Of a stretch of DNA of 64,000 nt, positions 2,909 to 30,926 are shown piece after piece (position 1 is the first letter of the stretch; every line of letters starts with the position of its first letter). This DNA is from a virus. Its lineage: Duplodnaviria > Caudoviricetes. Under the pieces are notes generated by a model. The model searched no databases, had not been told where the DNA came from, and saw only the letters and a program-made list of their open reading frames with translations. The DNA lies in IMG/VR virus record IMGVR_UViG_3300042268_000564, one strand, 5' to 3'. A program made the translations under genes and the position numbers.

Positions 2909-3316
2909 GTGATAGCAGGATTAGAACAGCTCGGAATTGGGTTAGCTGAAACATTTTCTACTCGTGAAGCATTTATAAGCGAGCAGAATGATATTGCCAC
3001 GACCGCTGATGAGTTGGAAAATTTTGCTAATGCAATCTGGCGAAGGATAATGACCCCGCTGGGGTTTTATCCAGAATTTCCTGATTATGGTTGCGAGATT
3101 CATTCCCTGCGGGGACTTGGGTTTGTGCCTGAGACGTTAAGCTTGGCTGAAATTTTTGTAACGCAGGCTCTTGTTCGAGAGGTAAGAGTGCAGAAAATCG
3201 TATCTATTTCTGTATATCCAACCGATTACAGAGCACTAGCATTTTACGTGGTGTTGCAGCCGATTGATACGCCAAATCCATATGTAATGACATTTGATTA
3301 TTTTCTGGAAAATTAA
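2909..3316 (+). CDS. Baseplate wedge protein, gp25/GPW-like
   Basis: 135 aa with RRIMTPLG..PDYGCEIHSLRG..ALVREVRVQKI pattern; located between spike and baseplate J. Confidence 0.8.
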   Translation: MIAGLEQLGIGLAETFSTREAFISEQNDIATTADELENFANAIWRRIMTPLGFYPEFPDYGCEIHSLRGLGFVPETLSLAEIFVTQALVREVRVQKIVSISVYPTDYRALAFYVVLQPIDTPNPYVMTFDYFLEN

Positions 3317-3328
3317 AGGGGTTATAAA

Positions 3329-5395
3329 ATGCCAACTTTCAGGGTATTTGATGTAGATGCTTTGCCATCAACGCAAGATTTATTAAGCGAATCGCTTGTT
3401 AATATAGTTGCTACAACGCCGGGGATAACAGATATTGCGGTTGGCAGTAAGTTGTGGAGTATTTGTTATGCTATTGCTCGTCAAAAAGCGTCGATTTATT
3501 ACACGCTCCATTTTTATAAAAAACAATCTTATGTTATTACAGCGTCGGGCAAATATCTTGACTTGCATGGCATAGAAGTCGGTGTTTTCCGACAGCCTGC
3601 CATTTCTGCAAGAGGGCAAGCAACTTTTTCAAGAACGTCACCGTCAGCTTATAAAATCCTTATCCCATCTGGGACAGTTGTTACAACGCCTGTTCTTAGC
3701 ACTGCGTCTGATGTCAAGAAATTTGTAACCACTGAAGATGTTTTCATTGAAGTCGGTGGGACTACTGCGACTGTTGATGTTGCGGCGGCTGTTGCGGGTG
3801 AAACAGGGAATTTGCCTGCTGGTGCGATTGCAAGAATAGAAGCCCCTATAGCGGGGGTTCAGGCAGTAACGGCTACTTCAACGAGTGGTGGGACTGAGAT
3901 TGAATCTGATGAATCTTTGCGAGAGCGCATTTTGTCTGCGTGGGCTGGCAGGATGTCGGGAACCTCAGACGCAATTCGAGATGCGATTCTATCTGTAACT
4001 GGAATACGAAGTGTTCTTATTATTGACCCTGCAAGAAATAGAGTCAAGCAGTCGCACATGATAAAATCGCTTGCTGGACAACCGATGGTATCTTTGGAAA
4101 CCAAAACGCCACTCGAAGCCAAGTATGATTTATATTCAAGCTTGCAATATGAGGATGATGGTCTAACTTTGAATATTAAGCAGTATGATGATACTGGGAA
4201 TCTTTTGTATGCAGAAAAAGCATCTGCATTGTCGGATGGGATTAGTGTTTTAGCCAAGGTGAATTATCTAAGTAAGAGTGCAATTATAGAGATTTTTTCG
4301 ATTGCACTTGATGATAACCCTTATGATGACCTAAGCCCGGTTGCTACAGACCGTCAGGCAGTATATGTTAGGACACTGAGCGAAGAAGTTAGCAACCAGC
4401 CTGTAACTCTTATTATTGCGAAAGACCCAAGTAACGCCGAGAATAAAAGGCTTGTTGTTTCTACATTTGCACAATTCAGACACAATGAAATACTTGGACA
4501 GACAGAAGTTACGCCATTGGTTGAGGTATTTGATGGATTTCAAACATATTCGGGAATGTGCAATAAAGTAAATGCCGAGTCTAAACTTATCCAGATGGAA
4601 CTTTTGGATGTTAAAGTTGCCACAGAGGAATTAATGCCTACGTGGAATCAGGCATATTCTACGAATACCGTTCAAACTAAATTTAGACCAATTGTTGAGC
4701 TGTTGTCGCCAACAGGGAGTAATTTCGAGGTGCTTGACCAGACTAACGGAATTATAAAAGTCGGGTCTGGGGCAGTGATGTCTGCGATAGAGTTCAGTTA
4801 TAGATACGAGACTGATTTTGGTTCAAGGTCGGTCGAGGAATTGACAATTAATTTGCAAGATGATGGGTCGAGTCTCGTATATGCAATGCCTCTTACTGGT
4901 TATTCTGATGAGTTAATGGAAAATGTTTCTTATTTGACAGAAATTCCTGCTGTTTATACTGAGACAAAAATGGAGCCACATTATGAATTAGTGAGAGGTC
5001 GTATCGACGTGGTGCCTGTGCCTTATGCTCTGCCAATAAGTGATGAGTTAGTAGCGGAGGTGGTTGCGGCGGCAGAAAGAGTTAAGCCTGCTGGCGTAGA
5101 GCTTTATATCCAGTCGCCAAGCGTTCAATATATCGATGTTTCTGTGGTAATAGAAGTGGAAACTAAGAATGACGCTATATTGCCATCTCAATTTTACGAG
5201 ACAATTAGAACCAATATTACGAATTACATAAATCAGCTCGACATGGGCGAGGCGGCTTATGTTGAAAGAATTATTGCTGCGGCGAATCCTGATATCGAGG
5301 GTTTAAAAGTGGCTCATGTTTTGAGTCCAGAAAATGATATATCACCTGCGCCATTAACATTCTTGCGAGCAGGCACTATTGAGTTTGTGGAGTAA
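3329..5395 (+). CDS. Baseplate J-like protein with a large internal insertion
   Basis: TASGKYLDLHG..R.PA..ARG, IPSGTVV, GETGNLPAGAI, GGTEIESDESLRERI and a C-terminal KPAGV...GTIEF. About 320 extra residues lie between the conserved halves. Confidence 0.9.
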   Translation: MPTFRVFDVDALPSTQDLLSESLVNIVATTPGITDIAVGSKLWSICYAIARQKASIYYTLHFYKKQSYVITASGKYLDLHGIEVGVFRQPAISARGQATFSRTSPSAYKILIPSGTVVTTPVLSTASDVKKFVTTEDVFIEVGGTTATVDVAAAVAGETGNLPAGAIARIEAPIAGVQAVTATSTSGGTEIESDESLRERILSAWAGRMSGTSDAIRDAILSVTGIRSVLIIDPARNRVKQSHMIKSLAGQPMVSLETKTPLEAKYDLYSSLQYEDDGLTLNIKQYDDTGNLLYAEKASALSDGISVLAKVNYLSKSAIIEIFSIALDDNPYDDLSPVATDRQAVYVRTLSEEVSNQPVTLIIAKDPSNAENKRLVVSTFAQFRHNEILGQTEVTPLVEVFDGFQTYSGMCNKVNAESKLIQMELLDVKVATEELMPTWNQAYSTNTVQTKFRPIVELLSPTGSNFEVLDQTNGIIKVGSGAVMSAIEFSYRYETDFGSRSVEELTINLQDDGSSLVYAMPLTGYSDELMENVSYLTEIPAVYTETKMEPHYELVRGRIDVVPVPYALPISDELVAEVVAAAERVKPAGVELYIQSPSVQYIDVSVVIEVETKNDAILPSQFYETIRTNITNYINQLDMGEAAYVERIIAAANPDIEGLKVAHVLSPENDISPAPLTFLRAGTIEFVE

Positions 5396-5398
5396 ATA

Positions 5399-7753
5399 AT
5401 GCTAACACCACAACAAATACTTGAGAAAATGTTGGAATGTGTTGCGTCTTTCGACGGGGCGCATACTGAAGAGTCTTTAGACCGAGCGATATTAAGAGCT
5501 GAGGCTAATTCTCTTTTTAGAATCCTGAGAGTTATTGAAGAAAGTTCAGGGCAGAGATTTGCAGTAACTGCGTCGGGGAAATATCTTGACCTTATCGGGC
5601 AAAGCATGTCACGGCCTAGATACGCTGGTGAATCTGATGATGATTATCGTGCGAGACTTGTGTTTAATGAGCGATTCTGGAATGATGTCACCGTAGCAGG
5701 CATCAAGGAAATGATAAAAAATTACTATGGTATCGACCTTGATAATGATGAATATGAAGAAACTAGACTTGTAGAGCTGTATCGTTCAGCCGCAGCCTTC
5801 CTTAGCGATGAAGAAGAGTGTGAAATAAAGCCTTGGGGTGAATTTGGTGCAGAATGGTTGGGTGCCAATACATTGCCCGGTGCGTTTGAAGTGCATTTGA
5901 GATGTTTTCAAGACGGCGAAGAAAAGCTCATTAAGAAACGCCATGTAAAAGAAAAGCTTATGCAGGTGCGAGCCGCAGGTATTGTGGTTTTGCTTTATTT
6001 TCATATAAGTTTTGGTGCCGACGCTATGATGCCGCCAGAAGGTGGGATAAGCGAGCTTGAATTAATTCAAAAAGAGACAGTGCCAATCCCTGAAGTTGAC
6101 CATGAATTCGAAGTCGAGATAACGAATAACGAGATTTCGTCTATTGTTGAGAGTGCTACTGATAAATTAAGAGGTTTAGTGTCTCGTAGAATTGTTCATA
6201 TCGACCAGAAAAATAAATGTCGTCCTGATTATCAGGAAGAATTTAATAGAATCACGACACCTCTTGAAATGGCGAAGTTTAATGCAGGGGAAGGTATGAG
6301 ACGTGCTGAACCTTTCAGATTTCGACAAAGTCGTTTAAGAAATTCTTGCTGGCGTTTTTATTATGGGACGAAATATGAAGAAATGGATATCACTGCCGCT
6401 TCTTTAACTCTGTCATTGGCATGGAATAAGCCTTCTACTTTCTATCCTCAGCAATATAAGGTTTATTATGATGAGGGGGGCAAAACGCTTGACGGGACAG
6501 GCTTATATTTAAACGGTGAAAGAGTAGACTCCCCTTTTACTGTTTCTGCTGCGATGCTTCAAGACCAAGACCAGCCAGCAATAGTTTTAACAAATGCCTC
6601 TTTGTCGGGGCTTTATTATTTTGAGATTGCTGCGATTATGCCGAATGGTGACGAACTGAAGCCATTGAATTCAGCATATTCTACATATAATGCAGGGATT
6701 CACACTTATTACACAAGACCGAATCCTATGGTAGATGCAACGCATCATTATCGTGGGGATGATACCTACGGGGTAGATTTTTATTCATTGATGGAATATT
6801 GTAATTTCTGGTGGCGTGTTTCATCTGTAGAGAATGGAACAGTATCAGCTACCTCATTGCCTTGGAAATTAACCGTTTACAAGACACAGGAGCCTATCAG
6901 TAGATTCTGGTGGCGTGTAACAACTGTCGATGGACAGGTCTTGAGCGCACCTTCAAAAGCGGCATTATTAAAGCTTGTCGGACAATCGAATATGGCGGAA
7001 CCCTCTCGTCAGGATTTGATGCAGGTTGTAAGGTGGGGTGCGTATGCCAATAACATAAATTTGCCCTCAATTGCTCAGTCGGATTCACAGTTGACGATAA
7101 TGGAGAGATTTGATTCAAGTTACAATAACTTTTCCAGATTGGATATTTTGTCCCTGAAAACAAGTAGGACACCAGCCCGATTGATTTTAGCGAAATTGCC
7201 AGTTTGTGGTGCAAGACAAGATGACCCAATACTGCAACAAATAGATGCCGCTGATAAAGGCGTCGCCGTTGCTGGTTACATTCCTTTTAATTGGCAGTCT
7301 GTGTTTGTTAAAGATAAGTTCCGTCAGCTTATGGATAAAATAGTCTCGGCAGGATATGACGGTGTTTTGCTTGACGGGCTGTGGTTAAATGATGTTTTTG
7401 GCGATGAAATATCAGCCGTGGAATTGGTTAAAGAGATAATTAATTACTTCAGGGTGATTAAATCGAAGCCATTGTTTTATGTTCTAATAAGAGGGCAGGA
7501 ACATTGGGTGGCACATTATGACCTGTTTAATTCATTGTCGGGGGTTCTTTCCGAGAATCTATTTTATGTTGGTGATGTTGAACAGCCAGCGGCAGTTACG
7601 CAAGATAAAGTGGGGTATTTGAATGTGTTTCACACAAATGGAAAAAGAGTGTTTGTGATTGATTATGTAGTGGATTCAGGGTTGCAGATTCTGTTCAAAC
7701 AAAAATGCGCAGCTCTTGGCTACGCATCTTTTATTACTGGTCAGAATTGGTAA
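5399..7753 (+). CDS. Baseplate wedge protein fused to an Fn3-like region and a C-terminal GH114/TM1410-like TIM-barrel domain
   Basis: N-term TASGKYLDLIG..RYAGESDDDYRARL..VRAAGI. Middle LSLAW..YKVYY..YYFEIAA plus two FWWRV hairpins. C-term GYDGVLLD..GVLSENLFY..GKRVFVIDY. Confidence 0.7.
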   Translation: MLTPQQILEKMLECVASFDGAHTEESLDRAILRAEANSLFRILRVIEESSGQRFAVTASGKYLDLIGQSMSRPRYAGESDDDYRARLVFNERFWNDVTVAGIKEMIKNYYGIDLDNDEYEETRLVELYRSAAAFLSDEEECEIKPWGEFGAEWLGANTLPGAFEVHLRCFQDGEEKLIKKRHVKEKLMQVRAAGIVVLLYFHISFGADAMMPPEGGISELELIQKETVPIPEVDHEFEVEITNNEISSIVESATDKLRGLVSRRIVHIDQKNKCRPDYQEEFNRITTPLEMAKFNAGEGMRRAEPFRFRQSRLRNSCWRFYYGTKYEEMDITAASLTLSLAWNKPSTFYPQQYKVYYDEGGKTLDGTGLYLNGERVDSPFTVSAAMLQDQDQPAIVLTNASLSGLYYFEIAAIMPNGDELKPLNSAYSTYNAGIHTYYTRPNPMVDATHHYRGDDTYGVDFYSLMEYCNFWWRVSSVENGTVSATSLPWKLTVYKTQEPISRFWWRVTTVDGQVLSAPSKAALLKLVGQSNMAEPSRQDLMQVVRWGAYANNINLPSIAQSDSQLTIMERFDSSYNNFSRLDILSLKTSRTPARLILAKLPVCGARQDDPILQQIDAADKGVAVAGYIPFNWQSVFVKDKFRQLMDKIVSAGYDGVLLDGLWLNDVFGDEISAVELVKEIINYFRVIKSKPLFYVLIRGQEHWVAHYDLFNSLSGVLSENLFYVGDVEQPAAVTQDKVGYLNVFHTNGKRVFVIDYVVDSGLQILFKQKCAALGYASFITGQNW

Positions 7754-8122: not shown

Positions 8123-8182
8123 TGTTTTTGAAAAAAAGTGATGCCCTCTACCATGTAAAGTATTTGAGAAATGGAGGGCATT

Positions 8183-8977
8183 ATGTTCAACTTGGATAAC
8201 AGTGTTCATTCTTACATGTATGGTTTTTTTAGTGCTGATGGTAATTTGTATGAAATGTCGAGAAATAGGGGTAGATTTTCGATTGAATTGTCTGTTGTTG
8301 ATGTAGAAATTTTGGAAAGATTCAAGGTGGTGTTGGAGGGAATTGGTTATACAGTTAGTCTAACGAGTCGGACTCGGAACACTAATTTTAAAAAAAATTA
8401 TTGTAGTAGCGTTTTGAGATTACATTCGTTTGATTTTCGTCAATGTTTGAAAAGATTGGGATATATTGCAGGAAACAAAGCAGGCATGTCGCTACCGGCG
8501 GGAGATTATTCTATAAGGGATTATCTGAGAGGGTATTTTGACGCTAATGGGTCGGTTGGTTTTACAGCCAAAGGCTTTCCTTTTATTTGTCTCGGCACGC
8601 CAAATGAAAATGTTGCGAATCTATGGAAGGAGTATGCTGGTAAAATTACTGGCTATTATAGCTCTGTTAAAAGAAACGCAAGGGATGGTTACTACAATAT
8701 TATGTTTAACAAAGAACGGGCGCAAGAGGTAATAAAAAATCTTTATACAGAGGATTGTATTTGTCTCAGACGAAAGAAGATTGTTGCTGAACAGGTTTTG
8801 TTGTGGCAACGTCCCGACAATATGCGCAAACACGTTCGGCAGGTTTGGGAAGCGTGGGAAGATGATTATGTATTGTCGCATTCCATAAAAGATAGTGTTG
8901 AAAAATTACAGAGGTCGTATTCGAGTATTGTATCAAGACGTGGAGTTTTAAAAAAGCTGAATAAAGTATTAGGTTAG
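8183..8977 (+). mobile_element. Free-standing double-motif LAGLIDADG homing endonuclease with a C-terminal helical (Myb/HTH-like) extension
   Basis: Motifs YMYGFFSADGNL and YLRGYFDANGSV; C-term WEAWEDDYVL..LQRSYSSIVSRR. GGAGG RBS favours the ATG at 8183. Confidence 0.85.
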
Positions 8978-11969: not shown

Positions 11970-12473
11970 ATGTGGAAGTTGTTTCAACATGATAAAAGAG
12001 AGCTTGACGACATGGGCTTTCGTTTCGCAAGACGAGTGCTTGCGGGGAAAAAGATTGTTATTGCTGACGACCACGGCAGCACTCTAAAGTGGCTTAAATA
12101 TACGCTTGAAGCATATTTTGCAGAAGTGTTTGTGTTTAAGCATGGGCAAGAAACGATTGACTTTCTCCAGAAAGCTAATAATGATAACGTGCCAGCAGAT
12201 GCGTTGATTTTAGATATTCACATGAACTCTATTGGTGGGTTGGAAATAGCGAGATTTAATTCAACTATGGCTCACCCTGCTTTTGCAATGTTTTTAACTG
12301 GTTGTAGGGAAGATAGTGAGGAGTATAAAAAGGCTGAAACAATGTCTGTCGTTTTACAAAAGCCTGTCGATATGGAAAAGATTCTGCAAGTGCTTTTGCA
12401 TGGCTTAGTCTCAGATTTTGATTTAGAGTATGAAGCATATGCAGAAGAACAAAAAAAAGCGTCTGTTGCCTAA
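11970..12473 (+). CDS. Single-domain response regulator (CheY-like receiver)
   Basis: IVIADDH acidic pocket, LILDIHM phospho-acceptor Asp, GGLE, FLTG and QKP motifs; no output domain. Confidence 0.9.
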   Translation: MWKLFQHDKRELDDMGFRFARRVLAGKKIVIADDHGSTLKWLKYTLEAYFAEVFVFKHGQETIDFLQKANNDNVPADALILDIHMNSIGGLEIARFNSTMAHPAFAMFLTGCREDSEEYKKAETMSVVLQKPVDMEKILQVLLHGLVSDFDLEYEAYAEEQKKASVA

Positions 12474-13617
12474 GCTAAAGGTGCAGAAAAACAAGAGTCA
12501 AAGAAAAGTGCCTGATGATATTTTAAGCCTGTTGTGCGATGGCTTCTCTCTTAATATTCTGATAGCAGAGCCAAATGGGAATATTTTGTATAAAAGTAAG
12601 CAGGTTGGGCAATTAGGATTTAAAGGCTCTTTATATCAAGATATAGACGAGTCGTGTGTTCCAGTTATTAGAGCTTGTATGGAGGGTTTGACTCACATGG
12701 ATGAGTGTGTGGGCAAGCTTAATTTAATGCTTGATGACGAACTTATAACACATGAGGCACAGTTTCTAAAACGAAATGGACTGGTTTATATTTTTCTCAA
12801 GCCAAAAGCTTTCAAAGAAGCTATTTCGTCAGAAACAATCCAAGAAAAGTTAGCGTCAATGATTCGTCTTTCTAATGGCATCGCCCATAATTTAAGAAGC
12901 CCGTTAATGACATTGATGAATATTGCAGATTACATGTCACTTTTTCTTAATAAGTGGCATGAGATGTATAATCATGACCATAAAAATTGTCCTTTTTTGA
13001 TTAAGCAGGCTGAGATGAATAGTATTTTGTTGCAAATGCAAGAGGATATGATGTCAAATATCGTAATGATGTCTGATATTATTAATTCTTTGAAAATCTA
13101 TGGCAAGACTGACCGTTTGAATGAATATCAGACGATTGATATTGTTGATTTGATTGGTAATGTTTCAAAGATGGTTGAATACAATGCTAAAGTAGAAGTA
13201 GAGATAAAAATTAAGTGCAACCTGAGAGGCAACAGGCAGTTGTATTGTATTCCCTCGGACATGCAGGTCGTATTTGTTAATTTATTTGAAAATGCGATAG
13301 ACCAAATTCAAACTAGCCGTAAAGATGGGATTATAGAGATAACGGTTACTCATCACAAAGATTCTATTCAGATAAAAATGCGAGATAATGGCGGGGGGAT
13401 TCCTAAAGACCTTTTAACTACGAACCAACTTTTTGAGCCTTTTGCCACGAAAAAGATTGGTGGCACAGGATTGGGACTTCACTCTTGTTTTAAAATTATT
13501 AAAGAGCATAGAGGTAATATTTACGCAAGAAATCATAAGGCAAAAATGGGCGCAGGTGCAGAATTTTTGATTGTATTGCCGATAGATTGGAGACGTCATA
13601 ATGATAGGGTTAGATAG
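12430..13617 (+). CDS. Soluble sensor histidine kinase (HisKA + HATPase_c) with a short PAS-like N-terminus
   Basis: H-box GIAHNLRSPL, N-box NLFENAIDQ, DNGGGIP, FEPFATKK, GGTGLGL; no obvious TM helix. Confidence 0.93.
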   Translation: MKHMQKNKKKRLLPKLKVQKNKSQRKVPDDILSLLCDGFSLNILIAEPNGNILYKSKQVGQLGFKGSLYQDIDESCVPVIRACMEGLTHMDECVGKLNLMLDDELITHEAQFLKRNGLVYIFLKPKAFKEAISSETIQEKLASMIRLSNGIAHNLRSPLMTLMNIADYMSLFLNKWHEMYNHDHKNCPFLIKQAEMNSILLQMQEDMMSNIVMMSDIINSLKIYGKTDRLNEYQTIDIVDLIGNVSKMVEYNAKVEVEIKIKCNLRGNRQLYCIPSDMQVVFVNLFENAIDQIQTSRKDGIIEITVTHHKDSIQIKMRDNGGGIPKDLLTTNQLFEPFATKKIGGTGLGLHSCFKIIKEHRGNIYARNHKAKMGAGAEFLIVLPIDWRRHNDRVR

Positions 13618-16600
13618 TGGACAACCGCTGGTTTTTGATTTTGTCACACAACAAGATTTGCCACAAGAAATAGGCAGGTTCCCGTCTTGCACGTCTCTTA
13701 ATGGTGAGTATTGTATTGTTGGTTATGGTGAAAATTTACCTCATGTTATCGCTCAAAATGCCGTTGGGGCTTGGGTGAATAATTATTATGAACAGACAGA
13801 CCATTCTACTTATACAGTTAAAGAGCAGTTACGCTTTAAGTGCAAGGGACGATTAAAGAGAGATAGTCTGGCGTCAATTGTGAAATGGCGAGTAAGATTG
13901 TTGAAGCAGGGGGTGCCTACGGGTATCTCAAAAGCTGGGGAATTTCAAGGACTTAACAGTGCGTCAAGTTTTGATATAAGCACTTATTTATGGTACCCGC
14001 AAACCTTTATTTTTAATAGTGTGAGATTGGATAATGGCGCGAATTATTCAGCGCAAATAAAATTTGAAGAATGGGTTGGGAGTTCTAAAATTGGCGAAAC
14101 GATTTGGTTTTCAACCGGGCACACAGTCAAGATAGCGATTAAAGCACCATCATTGTCTGTTGCATTAGGGCAGCCGATATATACGAATAATCCTACTTTA
14201 AGAGTCGAAGGAATTATTCACGGGAATTATCCTTATGTTGGCATGAGGAAAGACCTTGCATACGGCACGGGCGCTGCGGGGGCTGTTTTTTCTGCAAATG
14301 GTTCTGATTTGGATATAACCATCCCGACATCTGATAGAAAATATGGATTTGATATCAGCAGCTATGGAAACAAAAAGATGCGCATTGCTATAGCGGCAAA
14401 AGACGCTTATGGCAATGTTATGACACGTCCTGCAATAAGAGATGTTTGTTTTGATTTCGAGGCTCCTGCATTGTCATGGTCTGATGTAACACAAAGCGGG
14501 AGCGTCCTCACAGTAGAAGTAAAAGCAACAGATGTGTGGTCGGGCGTGGATGCGGCAACATGTGTGGCAAAGAATGTGTCTCATGGCGTTACGAAAGCGG
14601 CTACTTTTTTGGGACAAGATACTTATACTGTCGACATTCCTGTGATAGAAGGGCAGAACGTTATAACTTTTACTGCTGCCGACAGAGCAGGCAACTCAAG
14701 AACTATTGACAGGATTGTGCTGATAGACACTACAAAGCCCACAGTTGTTTGCAAAGAGGTCGTAGGAAAAGATAGCGCAAATGCCACGAAGACGTTGAGT
14801 TTTGTAGATGGGATGCGGGTATATGGCAATTCAATTACGGCGAGGTTTCTTGCTCAAGATGCAACTACGGGGCTGCAAGAAGTTATACTGGCACATAATG
14901 GTATGATTTATGGTTTTGATTATCAAGGTGAGCAGGCAGTTGTGTGCGAGCAAGTGTTTACTTTGATTGAGGGCAACAATGTAATTGCTTGGCAGGCAAC
15001 GGATAAACAAGGAAATGTAAATAATGGCGAGTCCGTTATAAGATATGCGCCATACAATGCAGGTGGTCCTGCCCTGACTGTTGTGTCACCAATTTTTAAC
15101 TCTTGGCAAACGAATGGTTGTTTGTGTGAAGGAACTGTGAATGATGCTGACGGCGTTGATGGTGTTAGGGTTGATGTGGCGTTAAATGACGGCGGCTTGC
15201 CTTATAAATCTTTTCTTACAACTGTAACGGGAAATTCTTGGTCTTGCGAGATGAATAATCTTGTCGATGGGACAGCTTATTTAACTATTGTTGCAAAGGA
15301 TTTAAAAGGTGTAGAGAATTCGTTGAAGCATAAAATAAGGGTTGATAATGTTTCGCCGGAGGTTACGGTTGTAGGAACTGTGCCATCAATGACAAATCAA
15401 AGTAATTTTTCTTTGAAAACGTATGCAGAGGAGCCAACTTCTTATCTTTCTAACTACAAATTGATTGTTAATGGGGTTGAAAAGGTGAATCATGTTTTTC
15501 AAGGAACCACTCAGTCGAACAAATTACAACCTCGAACAGATGTCGTAGCATTGAGCCAAGGTACAAATACGATTTCTGTTGTATATACCGATGCTACAGG
15601 GAATCAAGGACAAAAAGATTTTAGTATTGAACGAGTTAATCTAGCTGTAAATATTTCGGTTACGCCATCTGAAGGGACTCATATCTCTGAGCAGATGTTT
15701 GATTTTGTTGTGGCTGCTACAAGCCAAGAGCAGATTCAGCAGGTTCTCGTAGATTACTTGCCAAATAAGACCTCTGAACAGGCAAGAATAGACGGGGCTG
15801 GCTTTTATCGACTTGCGGCATCTACGATTAATTCAGTTTTGTGGCAAAATTCTTTTATGTTGAGTGCCGGTACGCCGTGTATAAATGTTGCAGGAAGTTA
15901 TGGCTCGCGAGTTTTGAGCGAACATTTTCCAGTTGCAAATTATACGATGAGGATAACTGCGGTTACTGCACTTGGGAATACTGAAGCTTTTTTTGGATAC
16001 ACAATGGATACAGCAGCAGATTTGCCAAGAGTAATTTCTATTACTCCGGCGGATGGCGCAAGTGGCGTATCGGCAAGCGTGCCAATAAAGATTGTATTTT
16101 CAAAGCCAATGAATACGACAGTTGCCTTACAGTTCATTTCTATTAATCCTCAACCACAAGGTGAATGGTATTGGTCTCAGGGGAATACAGTGGCGGAATT
16201 TATTCATACTCAGACATTTCAGAGCAATGTAGTTTACATCGAAGTAAATAGTGCCGCTAAGGATATTTACTCAAGGAATTTGGTGACAAGCTATTTTTCA
16301 AGTTTTTCTGTGAACCAACTTCCATTTGTAGAAAGTGTCTTGCCAAGTAATGGGGCGGGGTTGGATTCTGTGGTAGAGGTGAGATTTTCAACAAGGATGC
16401 TTTTAACATCGTTAGATTTTGTGGGCTTAAAGACAGTTAGCGGCGCATCTATTAATTGCGATTATTCTAATTTCGAGGATAATGGGAAAACAGTTTTAAG
16501 GCTTCGTCCGCAGGTTTTATTAACATATTCAACCAATTACATAGTGACCGTGCCAAGTTCTGTCACAAGCGTTTATGGACAGAATATCTCTGAACATCGG

Positions 16601-17239
16601 CATAGTTTTACAACAAGAATGGCAGGCAGTGTAACTGAGATGCAGGGGGCAACGGTTTTATTGCTGCCGGGGCTTAATGGTGTTTCTTTGCCGATGGAAA
16701 ATGCTGAGATTTATGATGAAAAAACATTGAGAAGTTATATTGATAAACAATTGGGGACAGGCAGCACTGGAACTATTTTCAGATATGACACACAATTAAA
16801 GAAGTGGACTGCAAAAATAGGGAATACATCTGGCAAAACATTTCTTTTTGGCGAGTCTGTTGTAGTGGCGATGAATATTGACACAGCAAAAACTGTGAGA
16901 TTTATTGGTTCTGCTCATCCAAATGGAAAAAATATTGTCATATCTGCTGGGTTGAATTGTATCAGCTTGCCAAGACAGGTTCAGGGATTGAATAGAGTCA
17001 AGGATATGGCAGCTCATATTGCAAGCCAGCTAGGGCTTAGTCAGTTGCCAGTATATTTAATTCGTAAAAAAGCTGGAAGCAGTAGCAAGATGGCAGTTGG
17101 CTATGCATACAGACTCCCTGTGACTCATGAGGGATTGTATTTGGAGACTGCTGATGAAGATATAAGAGGTGACGCTATTATTATTGTTTCGCCAAAATCT
17201 GGGTTTGTAAAGTTTAGTGGAGATTCATGGGAAAACTAA
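13601..17239 (+). CDS. Large multi-Ig-domain virion protein (tandem bacterial Ig-like domains, Big_5-like domains, two C-terminal GLNxxSLP repeats)
   Basis: Repeated D..P...A.D..SG...G.N...A.D..GN units; PADGASGV..IKIVFSKPM; LLPGLNGVSLP and ISAGLNCISLP. Confidence 0.75.
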   Translation: MIGLDSGQPLVFDFVTQQDLPQEIGRFPSCTSLNGEYCIVGYGENLPHVIAQNAVGAWVNNYYEQTDHSTYTVKEQLRFKCKGRLKRDSLASIVKWRVRLLKQGVPTGISKAGEFQGLNSASSFDISTYLWYPQTFIFNSVRLDNGANYSAQIKFEEWVGSSKIGETIWFSTGHTVKIAIKAPSLSVALGQPIYTNNPTLRVEGIIHGNYPYVGMRKDLAYGTGAAGAVFSANGSDLDITIPTSDRKYGFDISSYGNKKMRIAIAAKDAYGNVMTRPAIRDVCFDFEAPALSWSDVTQSGSVLTVEVKATDVWSGVDAATCVAKNVSHGVTKAATFLGQDTYTVDIPVIEGQNVITFTAADRAGNSRTIDRIVLIDTTKPTVVCKEVVGKDSANATKTLSFVDGMRVYGNSITARFLAQDATTGLQEVILAHNGMIYGFDYQGEQAVVCEQVFTLIEGNNVIAWQATDKQGNVNNGESVIRYAPYNAGGPALTVVSPIFNSWQTNGCLCEGTVNDADGVDGVRVDVALNDGGLPYKSFLTTVTGNSWSCEMNNLVDGTAYLTIVAKDLKGVENSLKHKIRVDNVSPEVTVVGTVPSMTNQSNFSLKTYAEEPTSYLSNYKLIVNGVEKVNHVFQGTTQSNKLQPRTDVVALSQGTNTISVVYTDATGNQGQKDFSIERVNLAVNISVTPSEGTHISEQMFDFVVAATSQEQIQQVLVDYLPNKTSEQARIDGAGFYRLAASTINSVLWQNSFMLSAGTPCINVAGSYGSRVLSEHFPVANYTMRITAVTALGNTEAFFGYTMDTAADLPRVISITPADGASGVSASVPIKIVFSKPMNTTVALQFISINPQPQGEWYWSQGNTVAEFIHTQTFQSNVVYIEVNSAAKDIYSRNLVTSYFSSFSVNQLPFVESVLPSNGAGLDSVVEVRFSTRMLLTSLDFVGLKTVSGASINCDYSNFEDNGKTVLRLRPQVLLTYSTNYIVTVPSSVTSVYGQNISEHRHSFTTRMAGSVTEMQGATVLLLPGLNGVSLPMENAEIYDEKTLRSYIDKQLGTGSTGTIFRYDTQLKKWTAKIGNTSGKTFLFGESVVVAMNIDTAKTVRFIGSAHPNGKNIVISAGLNCISLPRQVQGLNRVKDMAAHIASQLGLSQLPVYLIRKKAGSSSKMAVGYAYRLPVTHEGLYLETADEDIRGDAIIIVSPKSGFVKFSGDSWEN

Positions 17240-17249
17240 GGGGGATGGC

Positions 17250-18059
17250 ATGGCAACGTCAGTTAAAGATTTTGTAATACAAGGTTACGTATATCAGGGC
17301 GGAAGTAAGATTCTTAACGGGTTTGTTCGATTAAGAAATACTAATTTGCCAGATGTTATAACTGTTGCAAGGATTGGTGTAATGAATGATGGCACCAGTA
17401 ATCCGCCAGTTACGGATGGCATTTATGACGCATGGTGGTCGTCTCTTGGAAATCCGAGCGCGCCAGATGTCGCCAGAGTCGGCGACATTTTTGAGGTCTC
17501 TGTTTACGAACTTGATTCTGTCGCTGACATTAATCTTCCAGTGGAACTTTTAATGGAGCCAGTTGGCACTTTGGATGCCCCGATAATTCCTGCATTTAAT
17601 ATTTCAGCAGTTACTCAAGCCCATATTGACGCTGGCATGATGATTTATGATGTGTATGCTGCGGCGAATTCACTTCCTCAAGCTGTTACAATCGTGCCTG
17701 AAGATTTAGAAAATGGGTATAATTTGCGCTTTACAAATAATTCAACTGTCAAATGGGTGTGGACGATTCCGGCAGATAATGAGAACCAGCCCATTCATTT
17801 TAAAGTTGAATGGAGTAAAGACCCATCATTCCCGTCTACACCGGGAGTGGTTGGCGTTGCAACAACTTTGCCTACAGACCCTACAAGAACATTGTTTAAG
17901 TATGAATACAATCCTAATGTGTTTGGCGCATTTCCAAGCACGGGTGTTGAGAATCGGACTGGCTGGCGATGCATGTTGCAAATGAATTTGGGAAGCAGCT
18001 TGTCAAATGATGGGGAATATTATTGGCGAGTAAGTGCTACCGATGGCACAACTACTTGA
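17250..18059 (+). CDS. Structural protein: N-terminal beta-sandwich plus a C-terminal Fn3/Ig-like domain ending at YYWRVSATDG
   Basis: N-domain is paralogous to 18638-18988; C-domain is paralogous to domains in 21136, 28244, 29925 and 30927. Confidence 0.6.
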   Translation: MATSVKDFVIQGYVYQGGSKILNGFVRLRNTNLPDVITVARIGVMNDGTSNPPVTDGIYDAWWSSLGNPSAPDVARVGDIFEVSVYELDSVADINLPVELLMEPVGTLDAPIIPAFNISAVTQAHIDAGMMIYDVYAAANSLPQAVTIVPEDLENGYNLRFTNNSTVKWVWTIPADNENQPIHFKVEWSKDPSFPSTPGVVGVATTLPTDPTRTLFKYEYNPNVFGAFPSTGVENRTGWRCMLQMNLGSSLSNDGEYYWRVSATDGTTT

Positions 18060-20085: not shown

Positions 20086-21120
20086 ATGGCATTAGTTAAC
20101 GGGACTGAATATTTTTATTCGATTTACTTTTATGATGCAAGTGGGAATTACACTCGTCTCGACTCTTCGGCTATTCCTGAGTTAAATATCCCTGCGCCAG
20201 TGATGACATCATTAGTCTCGGGGGACAATCAATTGACTCTGACATGGGACAAGGTGGATTTATCGGGGAATGATGTGGACAGCTATAAAGTTTACTACGG
20301 ATTTGCTCCGGGAGACTACTCTTTTACGAAGTCGGTATTGTTGACTGATGCTGGCTTTGACCCTGAGAATCCATCAATTACGTTGACAGACAACATTTTT
20401 AATAATACGACTTATTGGGTGACTGTGTCTGCAACTTATGCCAGCAATGAGTCTGCTTATGCGGCGCCAGAACTTAGCGCAACGCCAGCATTGGTGTCAC
20501 TTGTGCCGCAGCCGCAGAATGTTTATGCTGTTGCGGGTGATGCAGCATTTAGAATCAAATGGGACAATGATGCGAGTGTTGATAAGTGGATAGTGATGTA
20601 TGATACCGCTACGCCGCCAATAACCAATGCAGTAGAAATATTGCCGGGGCAGGTTCAAATTGACCCCGGTGACGGGATGGCATATTTTGACGTTTTGCAT
20701 GTCGACGGGGTAACACCTGTAGTTAATGACACTTTGTATTTTGTCCGAATGTGGGCTGAGATAACTGGTGCTGCTGAACAAAGTCCGGGTTCTGAAATTG
20801 TTTCAGTATTCCCGCAAGAGGGTTTGGTTGGATTTGTTGACGGGCTTTATGCTTATTCGGTGCCGTATTATGAAAATATTGTCGGCGTTCCTCTGGCAAC
20901 AACAAGTATGGACACTCTGGACGCAATGACAACTACAATGCAGAGTCCTTATACAATCTATTATGACACGTCATTCAATACATACATCCCGGGACTTAGT
21001 CAGGGTGGCGACACAGTTGTTTCAGGCGCGACGGCTTATATTGTAGGAGCATCTGATTTGTCGGGTGAGGATATTATAGTGACTGGTGATGACTGGAGCA
21101 ATGACATTACAAGTTTGTAA
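20086..21120 (+). CDS. Fibronectin type III repeat structural protein
   Basis: Two Fn3 domains (GDNQLTLTW..YKVYY..YWVTVSA; GDAAFRIKW..YFVRMWA), preceded by an orphan LVNGTEYFYSIYFYDASGNY segment. Confidence 0.75.
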   Translation: MALVNGTEYFYSIYFYDASGNYTRLDSSAIPELNIPAPVMTSLVSGDNQLTLTWDKVDLSGNDVDSYKVYYGFAPGDYSFTKSVLLTDAGFDPENPSITLTDNIFNNTTYWVTVSATYASNESAYAAPELSATPALVSLVPQPQNVYAVAGDAAFRIKWDNDASVDKWIVMYDTATPPITNAVEILPGQVQIDPGDGMAYFDVLHVDGVTPVVNDTLYFVRMWAEITGAAEQSPGSEIVSVFPQEGLVGFVDGLYAYSVPYYENIVGVPLATTSMDTLDAMTTTMQSPYTIYYDTSFNTYIPGLSQGGDTVVSGATAYIVGASDLSGEDIIVTGDDWSNDITSL

Positions 21121-21135
21121 GATAAGGGGAGAATT

Positions 21136-22272
21136 ATGGCGATTGTAAGAAATGTAATAGCCAAAGCAGGCTATCATAAAGTGGGTGTTGCATGGTTAGC
21201 CCCATTAGATGTGTTTGACCATGTCCGTGTATTGTATAAATTGGGCAGTGCGCCAGCAAATGATACTGATGGGACTTATGTAGATTATTCAATCGGCGAC
21301 CCTGAAATAAGTGTTGATTTCGGCGACTCTTTAGGACTTGGTGGCTATTTTCAATATGAAAGTTCTGATGTCGCTACACCTGTTTATTTCCAAATTTATA
21401 CTTATGCTACACCGGATGACCCTGCGCCTGAAATGGTTCAAAAAACTGCGGCACCGGGCGCTGGCGGACTAAAGATAAGTCCTTATGCGGGGACTTTGCA
21501 AGACCAAACAGGTGTACCAATTGTTGTAGGAACTGATACATGGCTTGTTAAAGCGGTGAATGCTCGTTTGAATCCATTGGTTAGCCCCGGCGATTTGTTT
21601 TATGAGCTGGAGTCTAATGCGATTACAGACGAGAATTTTGTCATTGATTCTTTGAATAATGGAATTAGTGTTGTGACGGATTACGCTGACGACCTTTTGT
21701 GGCATGATGACACAATCGTATTTGAAGTTTGGAAGAATGGCAGTAAACTTTATCAATCATCCAAAAAAATTAATCTGTATCAAGCGACTCACTCTTATAC
21801 GCAGTTCCCGGGTGGCACTGGCGACCCAGACCTTCTTTCACAGTTGATATTGCAGGCTCCTGCGAATCAGCTTCCGTTGGCACCTGACATTGTTGCAGGA
21901 CAGGATACAAGCACGACTGATTTGACGCCAACTGTTATGTGGTATCACAGGGCGGATATTGATAATGTAAATAATGAAATTCATTATGCAGTAGAGTATG
22001 CCACTGCACAGACATTGGTTGGCGGAAGTATGCAGGTTGATGATACTCATGCATCTTATCGGGCATTTCTTTCAATTGACAACCCAGAATATTTTGAATA
22101 TTCAACCGATGGCGGTTCTACTTGGACATCATTTACAACTCTTGCGGGGGCAGGTTTGGTTTTGGCAGAGGATAGTCAGAATCAAGTTCGTTGCACAGTG
22201 CCTGCTGCGAGTGAATTGAGTGTGGGACAATGGTATTGGCAAGTGCGTGCGACTGACAAGACTCTTGCCTAA
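21136..22272 (+). CDS. Fn3/Ig-like domain structural protein
   Basis: N-term VGVAW..VRVLYK..PANDTDG; C-term TPTVMW..IHYAVE..WYWQVRATD then stop. Confidence 0.65.
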   Translation: MAIVRNVIAKAGYHKVGVAWLAPLDVFDHVRVLYKLGSAPANDTDGTYVDYSIGDPEISVDFGDSLGLGGYFQYESSDVATPVYFQIYTYATPDDPAPEMVQKTAAPGAGGLKISPYAGTLQDQTGVPIVVGTDTWLVKAVNARLNPLVSPGDLFYELESNAITDENFVIDSLNNGISVVTDYADDLLWHDDTIVFEVWKNGSKLYQSSKKINLYQATHSYTQFPGGTGDPDLLSQLILQAPANQLPLAPDIVAGQDTSTTDLTPTVMWYHRADIDNVNNEIHYAVEYATAQTLVGGSMQVDDTHASYRAFLSIDNPEYFEYSTDGGSTWTSFTTLAGAGLVLAEDSQNQVRCTVPAASELSVGQWYWQVRATDKTLA

Positions 22273-22294
22273 TTAAGTATAAAGGAGCGAGGTA

Positions 22295-22567
22295 ATGGCA
22301 ACCCCTAAACCACCTGTCTTGGTTACACCTGCGGACGCAATGATTACGGTCGACACGTCGCCTGTTTTTCGCTGGCAAGTGCCGGAAGGTGAAGAGGGTG
22401 CTCGGTATGATTTTCTATTGGAAATTGCCGAGGACAGGGACTTTACTAAGAATGTTAGACGATTCAACTCATTTGAGAGCAAAGAAGGATTTTCGTTTAA
22501 CACGCCAAGAGAAGCAAATTCGGGAGAAATAGTGTCCTTCGTATTGCCGGAGCCTTTAGTGACTTAA
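22295..22567 (+). CDS. Small stand-alone, C-terminally incomplete Fn3/Ig-like domain
   Basis: GAGG RBS; PVLVTPAD..PVFRWQVP..EGFSFNTP aligns with domains of 28244 and 30927 but stops before the YYWRV strand. Confidence 0.65.
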   Translation: MATPKPPVLVTPADAMITVDTSPVFRWQVPEGEEGARYDFLLEIAEDRDFTKNVRRFNSFESKEGFSFNTPREANSGEIVSFVLPEPLVT

Positions 22568-22597
22568 TTATTTGACCATTGTTTTATATAAAGGAAT

Positions 22598-22624
22598 GCA
22601 GGACAGTTGAGCGTCCTGCTTTTT
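22598..22624 (+). terminator. Rho-independent terminator
   Basis: GCAGGAC-8 nt loop-GTCCTGC followed by TTTTT. Confidence 0.7.
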
Positions 22625-22681
22625 CCTTTTTTAGTTTGTTCGGTAGGTAATATAAAAGAAATTAACCGGAAGGAAAAAGTT

Positions 22682-23161
22682 ATGGAATTAATGACTATCG
22701 AACAGATTAATATGAAAAATAATATCATTTTTACGAAAATACACCCGAAAGCGAAGATGCCAAAAAAGGCAACTGATGGTGCTTGTGCATATGACCTTTA
22801 TGCAGTAGAAGATGTTGTTCTTGAGCCAATGGACGTGACGCTTGTAAAGACAGGAATCAAAGGTAAAGTTCCTGAAAATTTTGAAGTTCAAGTTCGTTCC
22901 AGAAGTGGACTGTCTTTGAAAAAAGTTTTTGTTTTGAACTCGCCGGGGACCATTGACGAAGATTACTTGGGTGAATGGGGAGTTATTTTGTTCAACATCG
23001 GCAAAGAGCCTTTTAAAGTTGAAGCAGGTATGCGCATTGCTCAAGCAAAAATTTCTGCATGTGTAAAAGGAGTGAATTTTGTTGAAGTTGCGCAAGATGA
23101 ATTTGCCAAAATAACTACCGCAAGAGGTGAGGGTGGCTTTAATAGCACGGGCTTGAAATAA
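22682..23161 (+). CDS. dut: Trimeric dUTPase
   Basis: AYDL, RSRSGL, NSPGTIDEDYLGE, RIAQ and RGEGGFNSTG motifs. The ATG at 22682 follows GGAAGGA. Confidence 0.95.
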   Translation: MELMTIEQINMKNNIIFTKIHPKAKMPKKATDGACAYDLYAVEDVVLEPMDVTLVKTGIKGKVPENFEVQVRSRSGLSLKKVFVLNSPGTIDEDYLGEWGVILFNIGKEPFKVEAGMRIAQAKISACVKGVNFVEVAQDEFAKITTARGEGGFNSTGLK

Positions 23162-23184
23162 AAGCCTTGTCAGAAGGTAATATG

Positions 23185-23218
23185 AATAAGAGGGGCACAA
23201 AATCCCCTCTTATTTTTT
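23185..23218 (+). terminator. Rho-independent terminator after dut
   Basis: AATAAGAGGGG-CACAAAAT-CCCCTCTTATT followed by TTTT. Confidence 0.8.
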
Positions 23219-23256
23219 ATCAAAGAAAGAAACTATTAAACAGGGTAGATATATAA

Positions 23257-24099
23257 ATGGGGGCAGCAGCGATGTTTAAAGATTTTTTAAATGCGCTTGT
23301 AAATAAATTCAGGTTTAACAAGCAGCAGGGGCAAAAAAAGATTCTTGGTCGTAAACTGGAAGATGATTTTTATATCACAGTTGAAGGCATACCAACTCTT
23401 GAACTTGAGCGCAACGGCGTCGTGATTGCTCGTTCAACTTCACACAATATTGTAACTCAAAGAGCGTCCGTGCTTGTACAGAAACTTTTGATGATGCAGG
23501 CTGATACTTATGGAATTACACATATTGCTCTTGGAATCGGTGACCCTCATGGCTTGATTCCAGACAATTTGAATGATGGACAGCCTTGGCTATGTAATAG
23601 ACCGCCAGCAGCTCCACCACAAGGTGGACGCATAGACCCCACAACTGGTCGTCCTATTCTTGTGAATGAGATAGCAAGAAAGAAAATTGATAGCAGACAT
23701 TATCTCAACGAAGATTATTCAATCTCGCAAACAATCCTTCAGACAGGCGAAGCTGTTTCATTGCCGACTCATATTGGTGAATATAAGGCTCTCTTTCTTG
23801 AGCACGAAGGCAACGGCCCAATTATGGAATTTGGATTAGTCGGCGGCGATGTGTTTCCTAATGATGTTGATTATATTCCCTCTTATCAAACAGATGAGCG
23901 TGGGGTATTGTTGGAAGATGTAAATGGGCATTTTATCCCGATAGATGACCCTGCATCTGTGAGACTGATAAACCCCGGCGATTTAACAACTTATAAAACT
24001 CATAAGCTTTTTTACAAGACAAGTGAGGATAGATTGCGAGTTTCTTACATTTTAAAGATGTCACTCAATAATGCAGACCCTGAGCCAGCGGCAGATTAA
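23257..24099 (+). CDS. Tail-collar/fibre attachment-type structural protein
   Basis: HNIVT..ITHIALGIGD..LVNEIARK..EGNGPIMEFGL..YKT pattern, typical of tail-collar-like proteins of large myoviruses. Confidence 0.65.
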   Translation: MGAAAMFKDFLNALVNKFRFNKQQGQKKILGRKLEDDFYITVEGIPTLELERNGVVIARSTSHNIVTQRASVLVQKLLMMQADTYGITHIALGIGDPHGLIPDNLNDGQPWLCNRPPAAPPQGGRIDPTTGRPILVNEIARKKIDSRHYLNEDYSISQTILQTGEAVSLPTHIGEYKALFLEHEGNGPIMEFGLVGGDVFPNDVDYIPSYQTDERGVLLEDVNGHFIPIDDPASVRLINPGDLTTYKTHKLFYKTSEDRLRVSYILKMSLNNADPEPAAD

Positions 24100-24112
24100 T
24101 GGAGGCTGGTAA

Positions 24113-27100
24113 ATGACAAAGACAATCTCATCATATATATATTCAGATGCGTCAATAGTTCAGCCTTTGCAGGTAAATGCGCAGTTGGGGAAAGTAATTG
24201 GTGGTTATCAATATTCTGACCCAAGCATAATTCAGCCGTTAGAAGAAATAGGTGAAATTCCAACTGTTGAGCTTGTCGGCGGACTTTCTACTGTTTATCA
24301 AAATATCAGGTCTATTTCGGCAGTGATAAGAGTTTATGACTCTCTGACAGGGAATGATTTGCCTGATGTTAATGATGTTTTTGAATATAGTTTGGTAAGA
24401 TTTGGCGAAGCTGACTCTTGGCAGATAAATACTGATGAGAATATTCAAGTATTAAATCCAGACAATACAGTTGCTGCTGGCATGATGGAAGGTCACTTTG
24501 TTTTAAAAGTAAGAGTGACCAGAGATGGAAGTTATATTGCACCGGGTGTCCTGTCAAAAGAATTTTTTGTGGATGAAGTTGACCCGGTTGTAAGTATAAC
24601 GCCTGCGGCAGGCAGTTATTCATCTACAACTCAGATAGAATTGAGTGTGGTGGATTATACTGCGGCGACGATTTATTACACTACAGACGGGAGCGAGCCA
24701 ACTACTTCCAGCAACGCATATGTTTCTGCGATTGGAATGATGAATGCAGAAATCCGTTATATGGCAGTTGACGCTGCTGGGAATCAGAGTGCTACACAGA
24801 CAGCATCTTACTCTATAGATGATATTGCGCCTTTGATTACCGTATTGCCAGACGATACGCTTTTAAGTCTCGGCGAGGTGTGTAATGTTACTTGGCATGT
24901 TAATGAATATTGCGATACTGTTATTTTTGAACTCGGTGGTGACGGACTTAATATTGGTACCGGAACTGAATTGTTTGAATATACAAATGTAGTGGCGAAC
25001 GACCCTCGCATTACTACTATAAGCTCATTGCAATTACCAAATGGTGATTCAGAAATCAATGCCTATGCTGTTGATATTGCTGGAAATTGGGGACATGCAG
25101 GCTTTTCCATTACTTACAGCTCTCTTGTTCCTACGATTACAATATATGAAGTTTTTAGACCCGCTCTGGCTGCTGACGAAGACGGCGTTATTATTTGGTC
25201 GTCTGATTATGCAGGTGATTATGAAATCAGAGTTGGCGGTGCGAACCCCGGCGAAGGCACGCTTGTAGAAGATGGTGTTATTGCTGCGCACGAAATAAAA
25301 GAAAGTCAGGTTTTAAACTCGACTCTCGTAGCAAATGCTGACAATCAGATTAGAGTTTATGTTACTACGTCAGTAGGCAATACAGGCACGAATTCGTCAG
25401 TTAGAATGACTGTGGACTCAGAAGCACCTACCACTGTAATAAACCATTACGGCAGTGAAAGCCCATTCTCGGCACCTTTCGTGCTATCTATCACTGCGAG
25501 CGATAATGTTGTTGTAGGGATTCCTACAAATTTTGGTGAGAGTGTAGATGTAGAACCGCTTAATTATAATTTTAATGGCATGAGTCTCCAGACAGAGTGG
25601 AACTCAGGTGGCTATCAATATTCTGACCCAAGCTTATTGCAGAGTCTAAATGTTCAATTGCCTATAATCATAAGCAATGTGACAGCAATGGCTACCGTGA
25701 CCACTGCAACGGTTACTTGGGACACAAATAGAAATACAAACTCAGCTCTGTACTATGGATTGCAACCAGATTTGTCAGATGCAACCATTGAAAGTGACTC
25801 GTCCCTTGTTACTGCTCATTCTATTGGCATAACGGGGTTGACAGCCGATACGCAATATTTTTATAAAGTTGTTTCGGGAAGTGATGGCTATTTTGAAGAG
25901 TCCGCTATCCTGAGTTTTACTACAGCTACTGTCATAGATAGTGTTCCGCCAACAATTTCTAATGTAGTTGCTTCAGCAATAAGTGCGACTGAAATATTAG
26001 TTACTTGGGATACTGACGAGCAAGCAACTTCTGCTGTAATGTATGGACAACAATCAGATTTGTCTGATGGCGTTATGACAGCCATGACAGACCTTGGCGG
26101 GGTATTTTCACATTCCGTATTGTTGACTGGCTTACTGGCCAATACTGAATATTTTGTAAGGGTTTACAGTAAAGACAGGTCGACAAATGAGAACGAATCT
26201 TCTAGTGCTATTTTTAGTGCTACAACTTGGGATAGTTCTGCTCCTGTTATTTCGAATGTGACCATAGATGTATATAAAACTATTGCAGTGGTAAGATGGG
26301 AAACTGATGAGCCAAGCGTAGGGCATGTTGATTATGGCATTAATAATAGCTACGGCTTAACTGCGAATGAATTAAATGCAGGTTTGAAAACACAGCATGA
26401 AGTTATCTTACAGTCTTTAACGCCTGACAGGCTTTATCACTACAATGTTGTTGCTGAGGATTCTTATGGGAATCAGACGGCTGTTTTTGACAGAGAATTT
26501 ACAACTTTTGCCAATAGAGACGACAGAGTTGTAATTTATGCGACAACTGATGGAACTACACCGACTACATCGCATTATGGATATCGAGCGATAGGGCTTC
26601 CATTGAATATCACTGTTAATGGTGACACTATTGTCAAGTATTTTGCGGCTGATGGGTTCGGGAATCACCAAGCAGTTCAAACTGAGAATTACGCATTTGA
26701 CATTTCTGTTCCTGTAATTACGTTCGACAGCATGACACCTATTCTTTTGGGTGGCGGTCAAACATCTATTATTCGCTTCAAGGTGAGCGAGGTAACTGAT
26801 TATGAAATCCTCAATCAAGATGATACGATTCTTGCAAGTGGGGTTTCTGGCATTGATGCGTGGATAGATGCATCTGTTTCGTCAGATGACATGGTAGAAG
26901 GTTATAACCATATAACCATTAGAGCAACTGACACGTTTAATTACACAGCAGAACTTCAGATAGGGCATATAATTAAAGACACAATTCCAGCAGAGGTTGT
27001 GGCTATGCCACCTGCGGGTTATTTCAAGGAAGATGTGTTCATCGATTTGTTGCCACAAAATTTGCGCACTGGCGAACAAGTTACAATTTATTATACAACA

Positions 27101-28231: not shown

Positions 28232-28243
28232 GGGGTTGGCAAC

Positions 28244-29911: not shown

Positions 29912-29924
29912 GGGGAACGGGATT

Positions 29925-30923: not shown

Positions 30924-30926
30924 AAG

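Follow-up and report, generated by a model that had tools for sequence, protein, structure and literature searches.

An incomplete domain encoded by a small tail-region gene of an uncultured huge phage and a pair of spare β-hairpins in the baseplate of the same phage appear to be complementary parts of the same β-sandwich fold. Both were found in a stretch of 64,000 nucleotides, here called the window, which spans bases 223068-287067 of the 393,839-bp virus record IMGVR_UViG_3300042268_000564 (Caudoviricetes; a phage of about 394 kb). The baseplate protein, or wedge, is the 784-residue product of gene 5399-7753 and carries two tandem hairpins that each begin with FWWRV; the half-domain is the 90-residue product of gene 22295-22567, which stands 14.5 kb from the wedge gene and is not adjacent to it. 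The two genes and the features mapped in them lie on the plus strand of the window, and other genes are named by their first nucleotide. On the evidence of sequence comparison and structure prediction we favour, with modest confidence, the reading that the 22295 product is joined to the wedge in trans through the first hairpin, whose two strands would complete its fold.

The two pieces cover complementary parts of the same domain. Complete copies of this domain are present twice in gene 28244 and once in gene 30927, and the family is confined to the tail region of the window, as judged by jackhmmer with all open reading frames (ORFs) of the genome. The first domain of gene 28244 (28346-28714, plus strand), from which strands F and G were defined, reaches PF25788 (Ig_Rha78A_N) with 35.3 bits against a cut-off of 27.4. 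The 22295 product is linked to the complete copies by jackhmmer with E-values of 3e-26 to 3e-29. In an hhalign comparison (probability 97.9%, E 4e-13), its family matches positions 7-92 out of the 123 residues of the complete domain and ends short of strand F. Hairpin 1 of the wedge aligns to positions 96-120 (hhalign, E 2e-4), so that the two alignments complement each other and fit almost to the residue. The original prediction that gene 22295 encodes the domain minus exactly the F-G hairpin was thus borne out. The 22295 product gave no Pfam match at E<=0.1, and from its alignments it is classed as a partial Rha78A_N/FN3-like homologue (strands A-E), not as a complete member. Whereas the copies in gene 28244 are complete and score above the PF25788 cut-off, the 22295 product fits strands A-E and hairpin 1 fits strands F-G; compared with the Rha78A-like domain of PF25788 or the FN3 domain of PF00041, the 22295 product and the wedge module are each only part of a domain.

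The hairpins themselves are short segments of 24-25 residues. Hairpin 1 comprises residues 470-493 (6806-6877) and hairpin 2 residues 503-527 (6905-6979), and about half of their residues are identical to each other. As had been claimed, they follow each other with no domain in between, being separated only by the nine-residue linker YKTQEPISR (residues 494-502, 6878-6904). With the F and G signatures defined from the complete domain copies in gene 28244, the F-strand signature [FY]-[YW]-W-R-V-x-small-x-[DE]-[GN] is kept in both hairpins, and the full G-strand signature S-x-P-x-K-L-T-V is found in hairpin 1; in the G strand of hairpin 2, S-x-P is kept and is followed by a longer spacer before L-K-L-V. 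A likeness to the last two strands of the 28244 domain had been noted from the sequence alone, and it also emerges from an F-G model in which no wedge sequence was included: among the 2,728 ORFs of the genome, the wedge is the best match outside the family (E 7.6e-4), with 8.0 bits for hairpin 1 and 6.7 bits for hairpin 2. No Pfam model was reached by the wedge module. When a profile of the module was compared with 1.84 billion proteins, the matches besides orthologues were mainly tandem FN3 arrays, with one match per repeat located at the F-G hairpin; P0020 was matched in 25 stretches of period 122, and P0021 in 11.

Both hairpins are retained in all 12 wedge orthologues, which share 38-73% identity over the module. 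In the first 11 of these, F470, W471, W472, R473, V474, S475, G480, S486, P488, F503, W504 and G512 are invariant. The block conserved in the whole set corresponds to residues 435-528 and consists of a pre-hairpin segment (residues 435-469, 6701-6805; HTYYTRPNPM-D..HH-R..D...F...Y, with invariant columns), hairpin 1, the loose linker and hairpin 2. The mean identity of the orthologues to the window is 67% for the pre-hairpin segment, 65% for hairpin 1, 42% for the linker and 54% for hairpin 2, in comparison with 64% for the baseplate core, 26% for the FN3-like domain that precedes the block and 34% for the C-terminal enzyme domain. The pre-hairpin segment and hairpin 1 (65-67%) are as conserved as the baseplate core and far more so than the two adjoining domains.

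The half-domain is conserved as well. Gene 22295 is preceded by a Shine-Dalgarno sequence (AAGGAG, 22282-22287) 7 nucleotides before its ATG and is followed by a stem-loop with a T-run that reads like an intrinsic terminator (22598-22629), so that the ribosome-binding site and terminator first ascribed to it were both recovered. Homologues of 86-90 residues occur in nine relatives and a tenth, P0016, has 118 residues with an N-terminal extension; they share 48-79% identity, and every one of them ends within a few residues of strand E and lacks F and G. It is very improbable that gene 22295 is a functionless, decaying fragment, either of a broken 21136-22295 fusion or of a domain truncated by insertion of the dUTPase gene. 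Such an origin would suit its place: the inserted dUTPase gene follows it directly, and gene 21136, which ends 22 nucleotides before it, also has a truncated last domain. However, its size and end point are kept in all ten homologues down to 48% identity, it possesses the expression signals just described, and its homologue occurs by itself at another genomic site in three related loci (L004, L006 and L007). Moreover, the proportion of differing nonsynonymous sites in the family (pN, 0.13-0.46) is far below that of synonymous sites (pS, 0.66-0.90, saturated), and because of this 22295 is judged to be a real gene under purifying selection and not debris. A pseudogene fragment is ruled out by this conservation.

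Two further origins of the truncated ends were considered and rejected. Stop-codon read-through or an alternative genetic code would require strand-like sequence after the stops, and the frames following the stops of 21136 and 22295 are not strand-like; in particular, read-through yields nothing that resembles strand G. Translation with table 11 yields long clean ORFs across the window. P0029, a longer protein discussed below, is not a simple fusion of 21136 and 22295, its N-terminal part not being homologous to 21136. In the short contig L002 (1909-2583), P0016 adjoins release-factor-like genes (PCRF, RF-1), a Macro-domain gene and a kinase/phosphatase-like gene (Zeta_toxin, AAA_33, HAD_PNKP), and this neighbourhood could hint at recoding in that phage.

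The half-domain is also reused as a module. A search among longer proteins revealed P0026-P0029 (260-445 residues), FN3 arrays that terminate in this half-domain, again cut after strand E. The locus of P0029 is syntenic with the window from 21136 to 30927, and in a related lineage the module without F and G ends an FN3-array protein of 439-445 residues. Whether free or terminal in a larger protein, the half-domain behaves, to judge from its sequence, like a docking module whose last hairpin is to come from a second chain. The free gene keeps its position after the 21136 homologue and before the dUTPase gene in L001, and in L004, L006 and L007 it is found by itself, 7-9 kb upstream of the wedge gene. 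Co-occurrence was judged from 10-kb flanks around the assembly loci: the half-domain, the proposed socket, and a hairpin-bearing wedge share a contig in each of the four cases that can be tested, namely the window genome, L004, L006 and L007. The half-domain gene adjoins or lies near a dUTPase gene in the window (22295-23161) and in L001, L004, L006 and L007, even where the surroundings are non-structural.

Some of the collections searched yielded few relatives or none. Neither tblastn nor blastn gave a match in GenBank phages, and a scan of IMG/VR with the 22295 half-domain gave no relative. A metagenome scan with the half-domain found one close homologue, together with six matches to its first half only, in unrelated proteins.

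A confident heterodimer of the 22295 product and the wedge was predicted by co-folding, as the original prediction had anticipated. The co-fold was carried out once, with wedge residues 425-545 and the 22295 product and with a separate alignment for each chain. The interaction prediction score from aligned errors (ipSAE) was 0.88, 0.87 and 0.89, against 0.01 for the best of three controls; this mark is attained by 58 of 80 solved complexes and by 2 of 110 mismatched pairs, counts that apply only roughly here, own alignments having been used. At least 97% of contacts are common to the runs. The predicted local distance difference test (pLDDT) of the 22295 product is at least 88 with the wedge piece and 53 with a replacement for it. 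The predicted interface is formed by wedge residues 466-496 and involves hairpin 1 only. In the lowest-error pairs, the F strand of the wedge (470-477) runs antiparallel to residues 39-46 of the 22295 product, its C strand; V474 contacts W27 and L9, and the second arm of hairpin 1 touches the N-terminal strand of the 22295 product. The modelled geometry is that of an intact FN3 sandwich. Profile searches throughout the PDB with both alignments (A4 and A5) gave no match at E<=1. No solved chain, and hence neither BppU nor BppA of phage Tuc2009, is thus detectably related, and the co-fold pass would not reflect memory of a like complex, although memory of the fold is still possible. Because hairpin 1 and the C strand of the 22295 product are both nearly invariant, they offer nothing to measure as co-variation.

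The joint that we infer from these data, in its binding, stoichiometry and purpose, would be made as follows. In the wedge, hairpin 470-493, which has the F-G sequence, would be exposed between the baseplate core and the C-terminal glycosidase domain. The 22295 product, which ends after strand E, would be unable to close its β-sandwich alone and would thus take up this hairpin, the F strand of the wedge pairing antiparallel with its C strand and the G strand of the wedge lying against its A strand, while V474 would enter the core beside W27. The outcome would be a composite domain fixed on each wedge, which may stiffen the arm that bears the glycosidase or serve as an adaptor. Hairpin 2 may bind a second copy of this small protein or have a role inside the wedge itself.

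Several points weigh against trans completion by hairpin 1. First, the co-fold controls were unrelated proteins and not other F-G hairpins, and since any F-G hairpin might complete such a half, the pass may merely reflect the predictor's knowledge of the FN3 fold and be silent on specificity. Second, the conserved segment 435-469 and hairpin 2 play no part in the co-fold model. Third, the half-domain gene of distant relatives lies among non-structural genes (SbcC-like, dUTPase, DnaJ and ThyX), and its product is only a putative virion protein. Fourth, the window holds other candidate plugs, which are described below. Fifth, residues 453-517 of the wedge are collinear with positions 32-93 of the complete 104-residue FN3-like repeat of P0022 (hhalign, probability 92.7%, E 4e-7, 62 columns, strands C to F); in this alignment hairpin 1 falls at strands C'-E, and hairpin 2 on the true F-G.

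This collinearity speaks for a rival explanation that is rather unlikely in our view, but is the most serious one. According to it, both hairpins are integral to the wedge: residues 435-528 would form one compact seven-strand FN3-like domain, with strand A at 436-440, B at 449-453, C at 459-467, C' and E supplied by hairpin 1, and F and G by hairpin 2. Such a domain would link the baseplate core to the glycosidase or contact other baseplate parts, the 22295 product would find its strands elsewhere or work incomplete, and the co-fold would be an artefact. The strand count and the length of about 95 residues suit a whole domain, the pre-hairpin segment is invariant together with the hairpins, and the choice of co-fold controls, which were not other hairpins, leaves room for this explanation. 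On the other hand, AlphaFold2 (AF2) gives no confident intramolecular fold: pLDDT is about 30 for residues 424-535 in the whole wedge (11 sequences) and averages 47.7 for the cropped module alone (12 sequences), with values of about 30-60 for the module region across runs, whereas the strands of the less conserved FN3-like neighbour reach 55-75 in the whole-protein run. Hairpin 1 invariantly keeps the F-G signature, including R473 and S-x-P, for which a C'-E segment would give no reason. Furthermore, an integral domain would leave the conserved, portable and co-occurring 22295 domain, always devoid of F and G, unexplained and without a donor. In view of the collinearity of the module with a single FN3-like domain, the hairpins are described as putative orphans. 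A mixed model, in which hairpin 2 acts in cis and hairpin 1 in trans, is possible. The claim that the half-domain clips onto the wedge through its hairpins gains support for hairpin 1, from the co-fold, co-occurrence, conservation and modularity, but not for hairpin 2, which lies outside the model.

Other pieces of the same kind of domain occur in the tail region. The C-terminal copies in the 17217, 29925 and 30927 products stop just after strand F, and the 21136 product does likewise by motif. In all, the products of 17217-18059, 21136-22272, 29925-30923 and 30927-32285 end 6-9 residues after the strand-F motif, each without strand G; their last residues before the stop are, in this order, YYWRVSATDGTTT, WYWQVRATDKTLA, YAFKVFADDRR and YYCRASAWDNWQ. 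Such endings are kept in relatives, as in L001 (WYWQVRATDKTPA) and L016 (YWYRISANDRR). The missing strand G of the four proteins might be supplied by another chain. In addition, the 32276-33223 product has three consecutive F-G-like hairpins of the classical FN3 type near its C-terminus, and the 20086-21120 product has one F-G-like hairpin at its N-terminus. Neither matches the F-G model of the 22295 family, and they may be plugs for other sockets.

These pieces bear on a second rival explanation, which we regard as quite improbable: the wedge hairpins would serve as plugs, or for β-augmentation, toward other partners such as a neighbouring wedge subunit, another baseplate protein or another incomplete tail-fibre domain, and the 22295 product would dock elsewhere. 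Incomplete FN3-type pieces are indeed numerous in the window, the four G-less products among them; the conserved hairpin 2 and residues 435-469 are left unused by the co-fold; and the 15 kb examined of L018, a relative with the wedge module, yielded no half-domain. Nevertheless, 22295 is the sole gene in the genome that lacks both F and G of the family domain (jackhmmer), no orphan hairpins of the 394-kb genome other than those of the wedge score with the family F-G model, and the G-less domains need one strand and not a hairpin. Trans completion of the 22295 product by hairpin 1 can also be extended into a portable docking code, which we put forward tentatively and hold to be doubtful. Domains without F and G, whether they stand by themselves or terminate fibre-like FN3 arrays, would be captured by the tandem wedge hairpins, two modules per wedge, and together with the G-less ends of the four neighbours this would make the whole peripheral baseplate a network of inter-chain fold completions.

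The closest precedent, and the only verified solved case of such a joint between hairpin and sandwich, is that of the Lactococcus phage Tuc2009. In its crystal structure, the C-terminal hairpin 296-321 of BppU completes the sheet of BppA domain 2, and the composite resembles a titin immunoglobulin (Ig) domain (mBio 2016, PMC4742702). In Tuc2009 a baseplate hairpin thus completes the incomplete Ig/FN3-like sandwich of a separately made accessory protein, and the wedge hairpin is predicted to do so here. The wedge has a free baseplate hairpin with the sequence of the partner's missing strands, as far as sequence comparison tells, and gene 22295 encodes a separately translated partner with an incomplete β-sandwich. 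The two systems differ in several respects. The Tuc2009 hairpin is a 25-residue C-terminal extension in a siphophage, whereas those of the wedge are internal and tandem, in a myophage-type phage of 394 kb. BppA carries a carbohydrate-binding domain, whereas the partner here is the half-domain only, or the end of an FN3 array in relatives. The present case is further distinguished by the enzyme domain of the wedge, the cut after strand E and the portability of the socket. A search of the literature found no paper uniting phage baseplate, FN3 and strand complementation.

A more distant parallel is the donor-strand complementation of chaperone-usher pilins, in which an Ig fold lacking strand G is completed by an N-terminal extension. 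An Ig-like fold that one chain leaves unfinished receives a strand from a second chain there, as is proposed here. However, the 22295 product lacks both F and G, not strand G only, and would receive an internal hairpin instead of an N-terminal donor; neither a chaperone nor an usher is involved, and no sequence relationship is claimed.

The remainder of the wedge agrees with its assignment. The N-terminal baseplate core (residues 1-330, 5399-6388) matches phrog_1160, phrog_7378 and phrog_5857; residues 31-120 are matched by PHROG baseplate and wedge families (phrog_1160, E 4.5e-7), among which phrog_5857 is annotated as 'baseplate wedge subunit'. The gene directly upstream (3329-5395) encodes a Baseplate_J protein (PF04865, E 2e-35), and is itself preceded by a 135-residue ORF (2909-3316), at whose place relatives have a sheath-initiator gene. 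The same order around the wedge gene is found in six relatives, L004-L008 and L018. Because of the PHROG matches at the N-terminus and the position after Baseplate_J, 'baseplate wedge' (gpI/gp7-type) seems a fair name for the product. Baseplate wedge proteins of the P2 gpI/T4 gp7 type anchor fibres. The gene studied here resembles theirs in following gp25-like and Baseplate_J genes, and its product would likewise hold peripheral components by its distal part; unlike those proteins, however, it has a GH191/GH114-like glycosidase domain at its end, and fold completion would be its means of holding the partner.

Between the core and the hairpin module lies a variable FN3-like domain with F-G strands of its own (residues 338-430, 6410-6688), in place of which distant orthologues have unrelated sequence and which is absent from P0010. 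The C-terminal region (residues 545-784, 7031-7753) is predicted to be a TIM barrel of the GH191/GH114-like alpha-galactosaminidase type. AF2 models it with pLDDT of about 88, and Foldseek places 9ep5_A first (E 1e-17, template modelling score TMt 0.80), with further matches to TM1410, Ega3 and PelA (2aam, 6oj1 and 5tcb also matched). The sequence match to PF03537 at the C-terminus is weak, with 15.7 bits against a cut-off of 27, and stays below the gathering score. From these predictions, the domain probably represents an exopolysaccharide depolymerase that forms part of the baseplate.

The surroundings of the wedge gene vary among the relatives. The ORF 8171-8977, which follows it in the window, has two G-[FY]F-[SD]A-[DN]G motifs and resembles a free-standing LAGLIDADG homing endonuclease, and no ORF of this type is present at this place in L004, L005, L007 and L008. 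In L006, a GmrSD_N gene and an IS605 OrfB/TnpB-like gene (12384-14074) are inserted right after the wedge gene on the opposite strand. L018, whose wedge lacks the variable FN3-like domain, has a TubZ-like tubulin gene (13837-14871) 8.6 kb downstream of the wedge gene.

To our knowledge, there are almost no structures for uncultured huge phages, and most of their tail proteins are unannotated. If the proposed completion of the 22295 product by the wedge is true, the single solved case of Tuc2009, a small siphophage with a C-terminal tag, would be joined by one in which the plugs are internal and duplicated and belong to a contractile-tail wedge with an exopolysaccharide-degrading domain, and the socket would be a portable module. 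A domain that stops before its last hairpin, together with a spare hairpin elsewhere, would then predict a physical joint, and this would provide a rule, readable from sequence, for which baseplate proteins attach to one another in uncultured huge phages.

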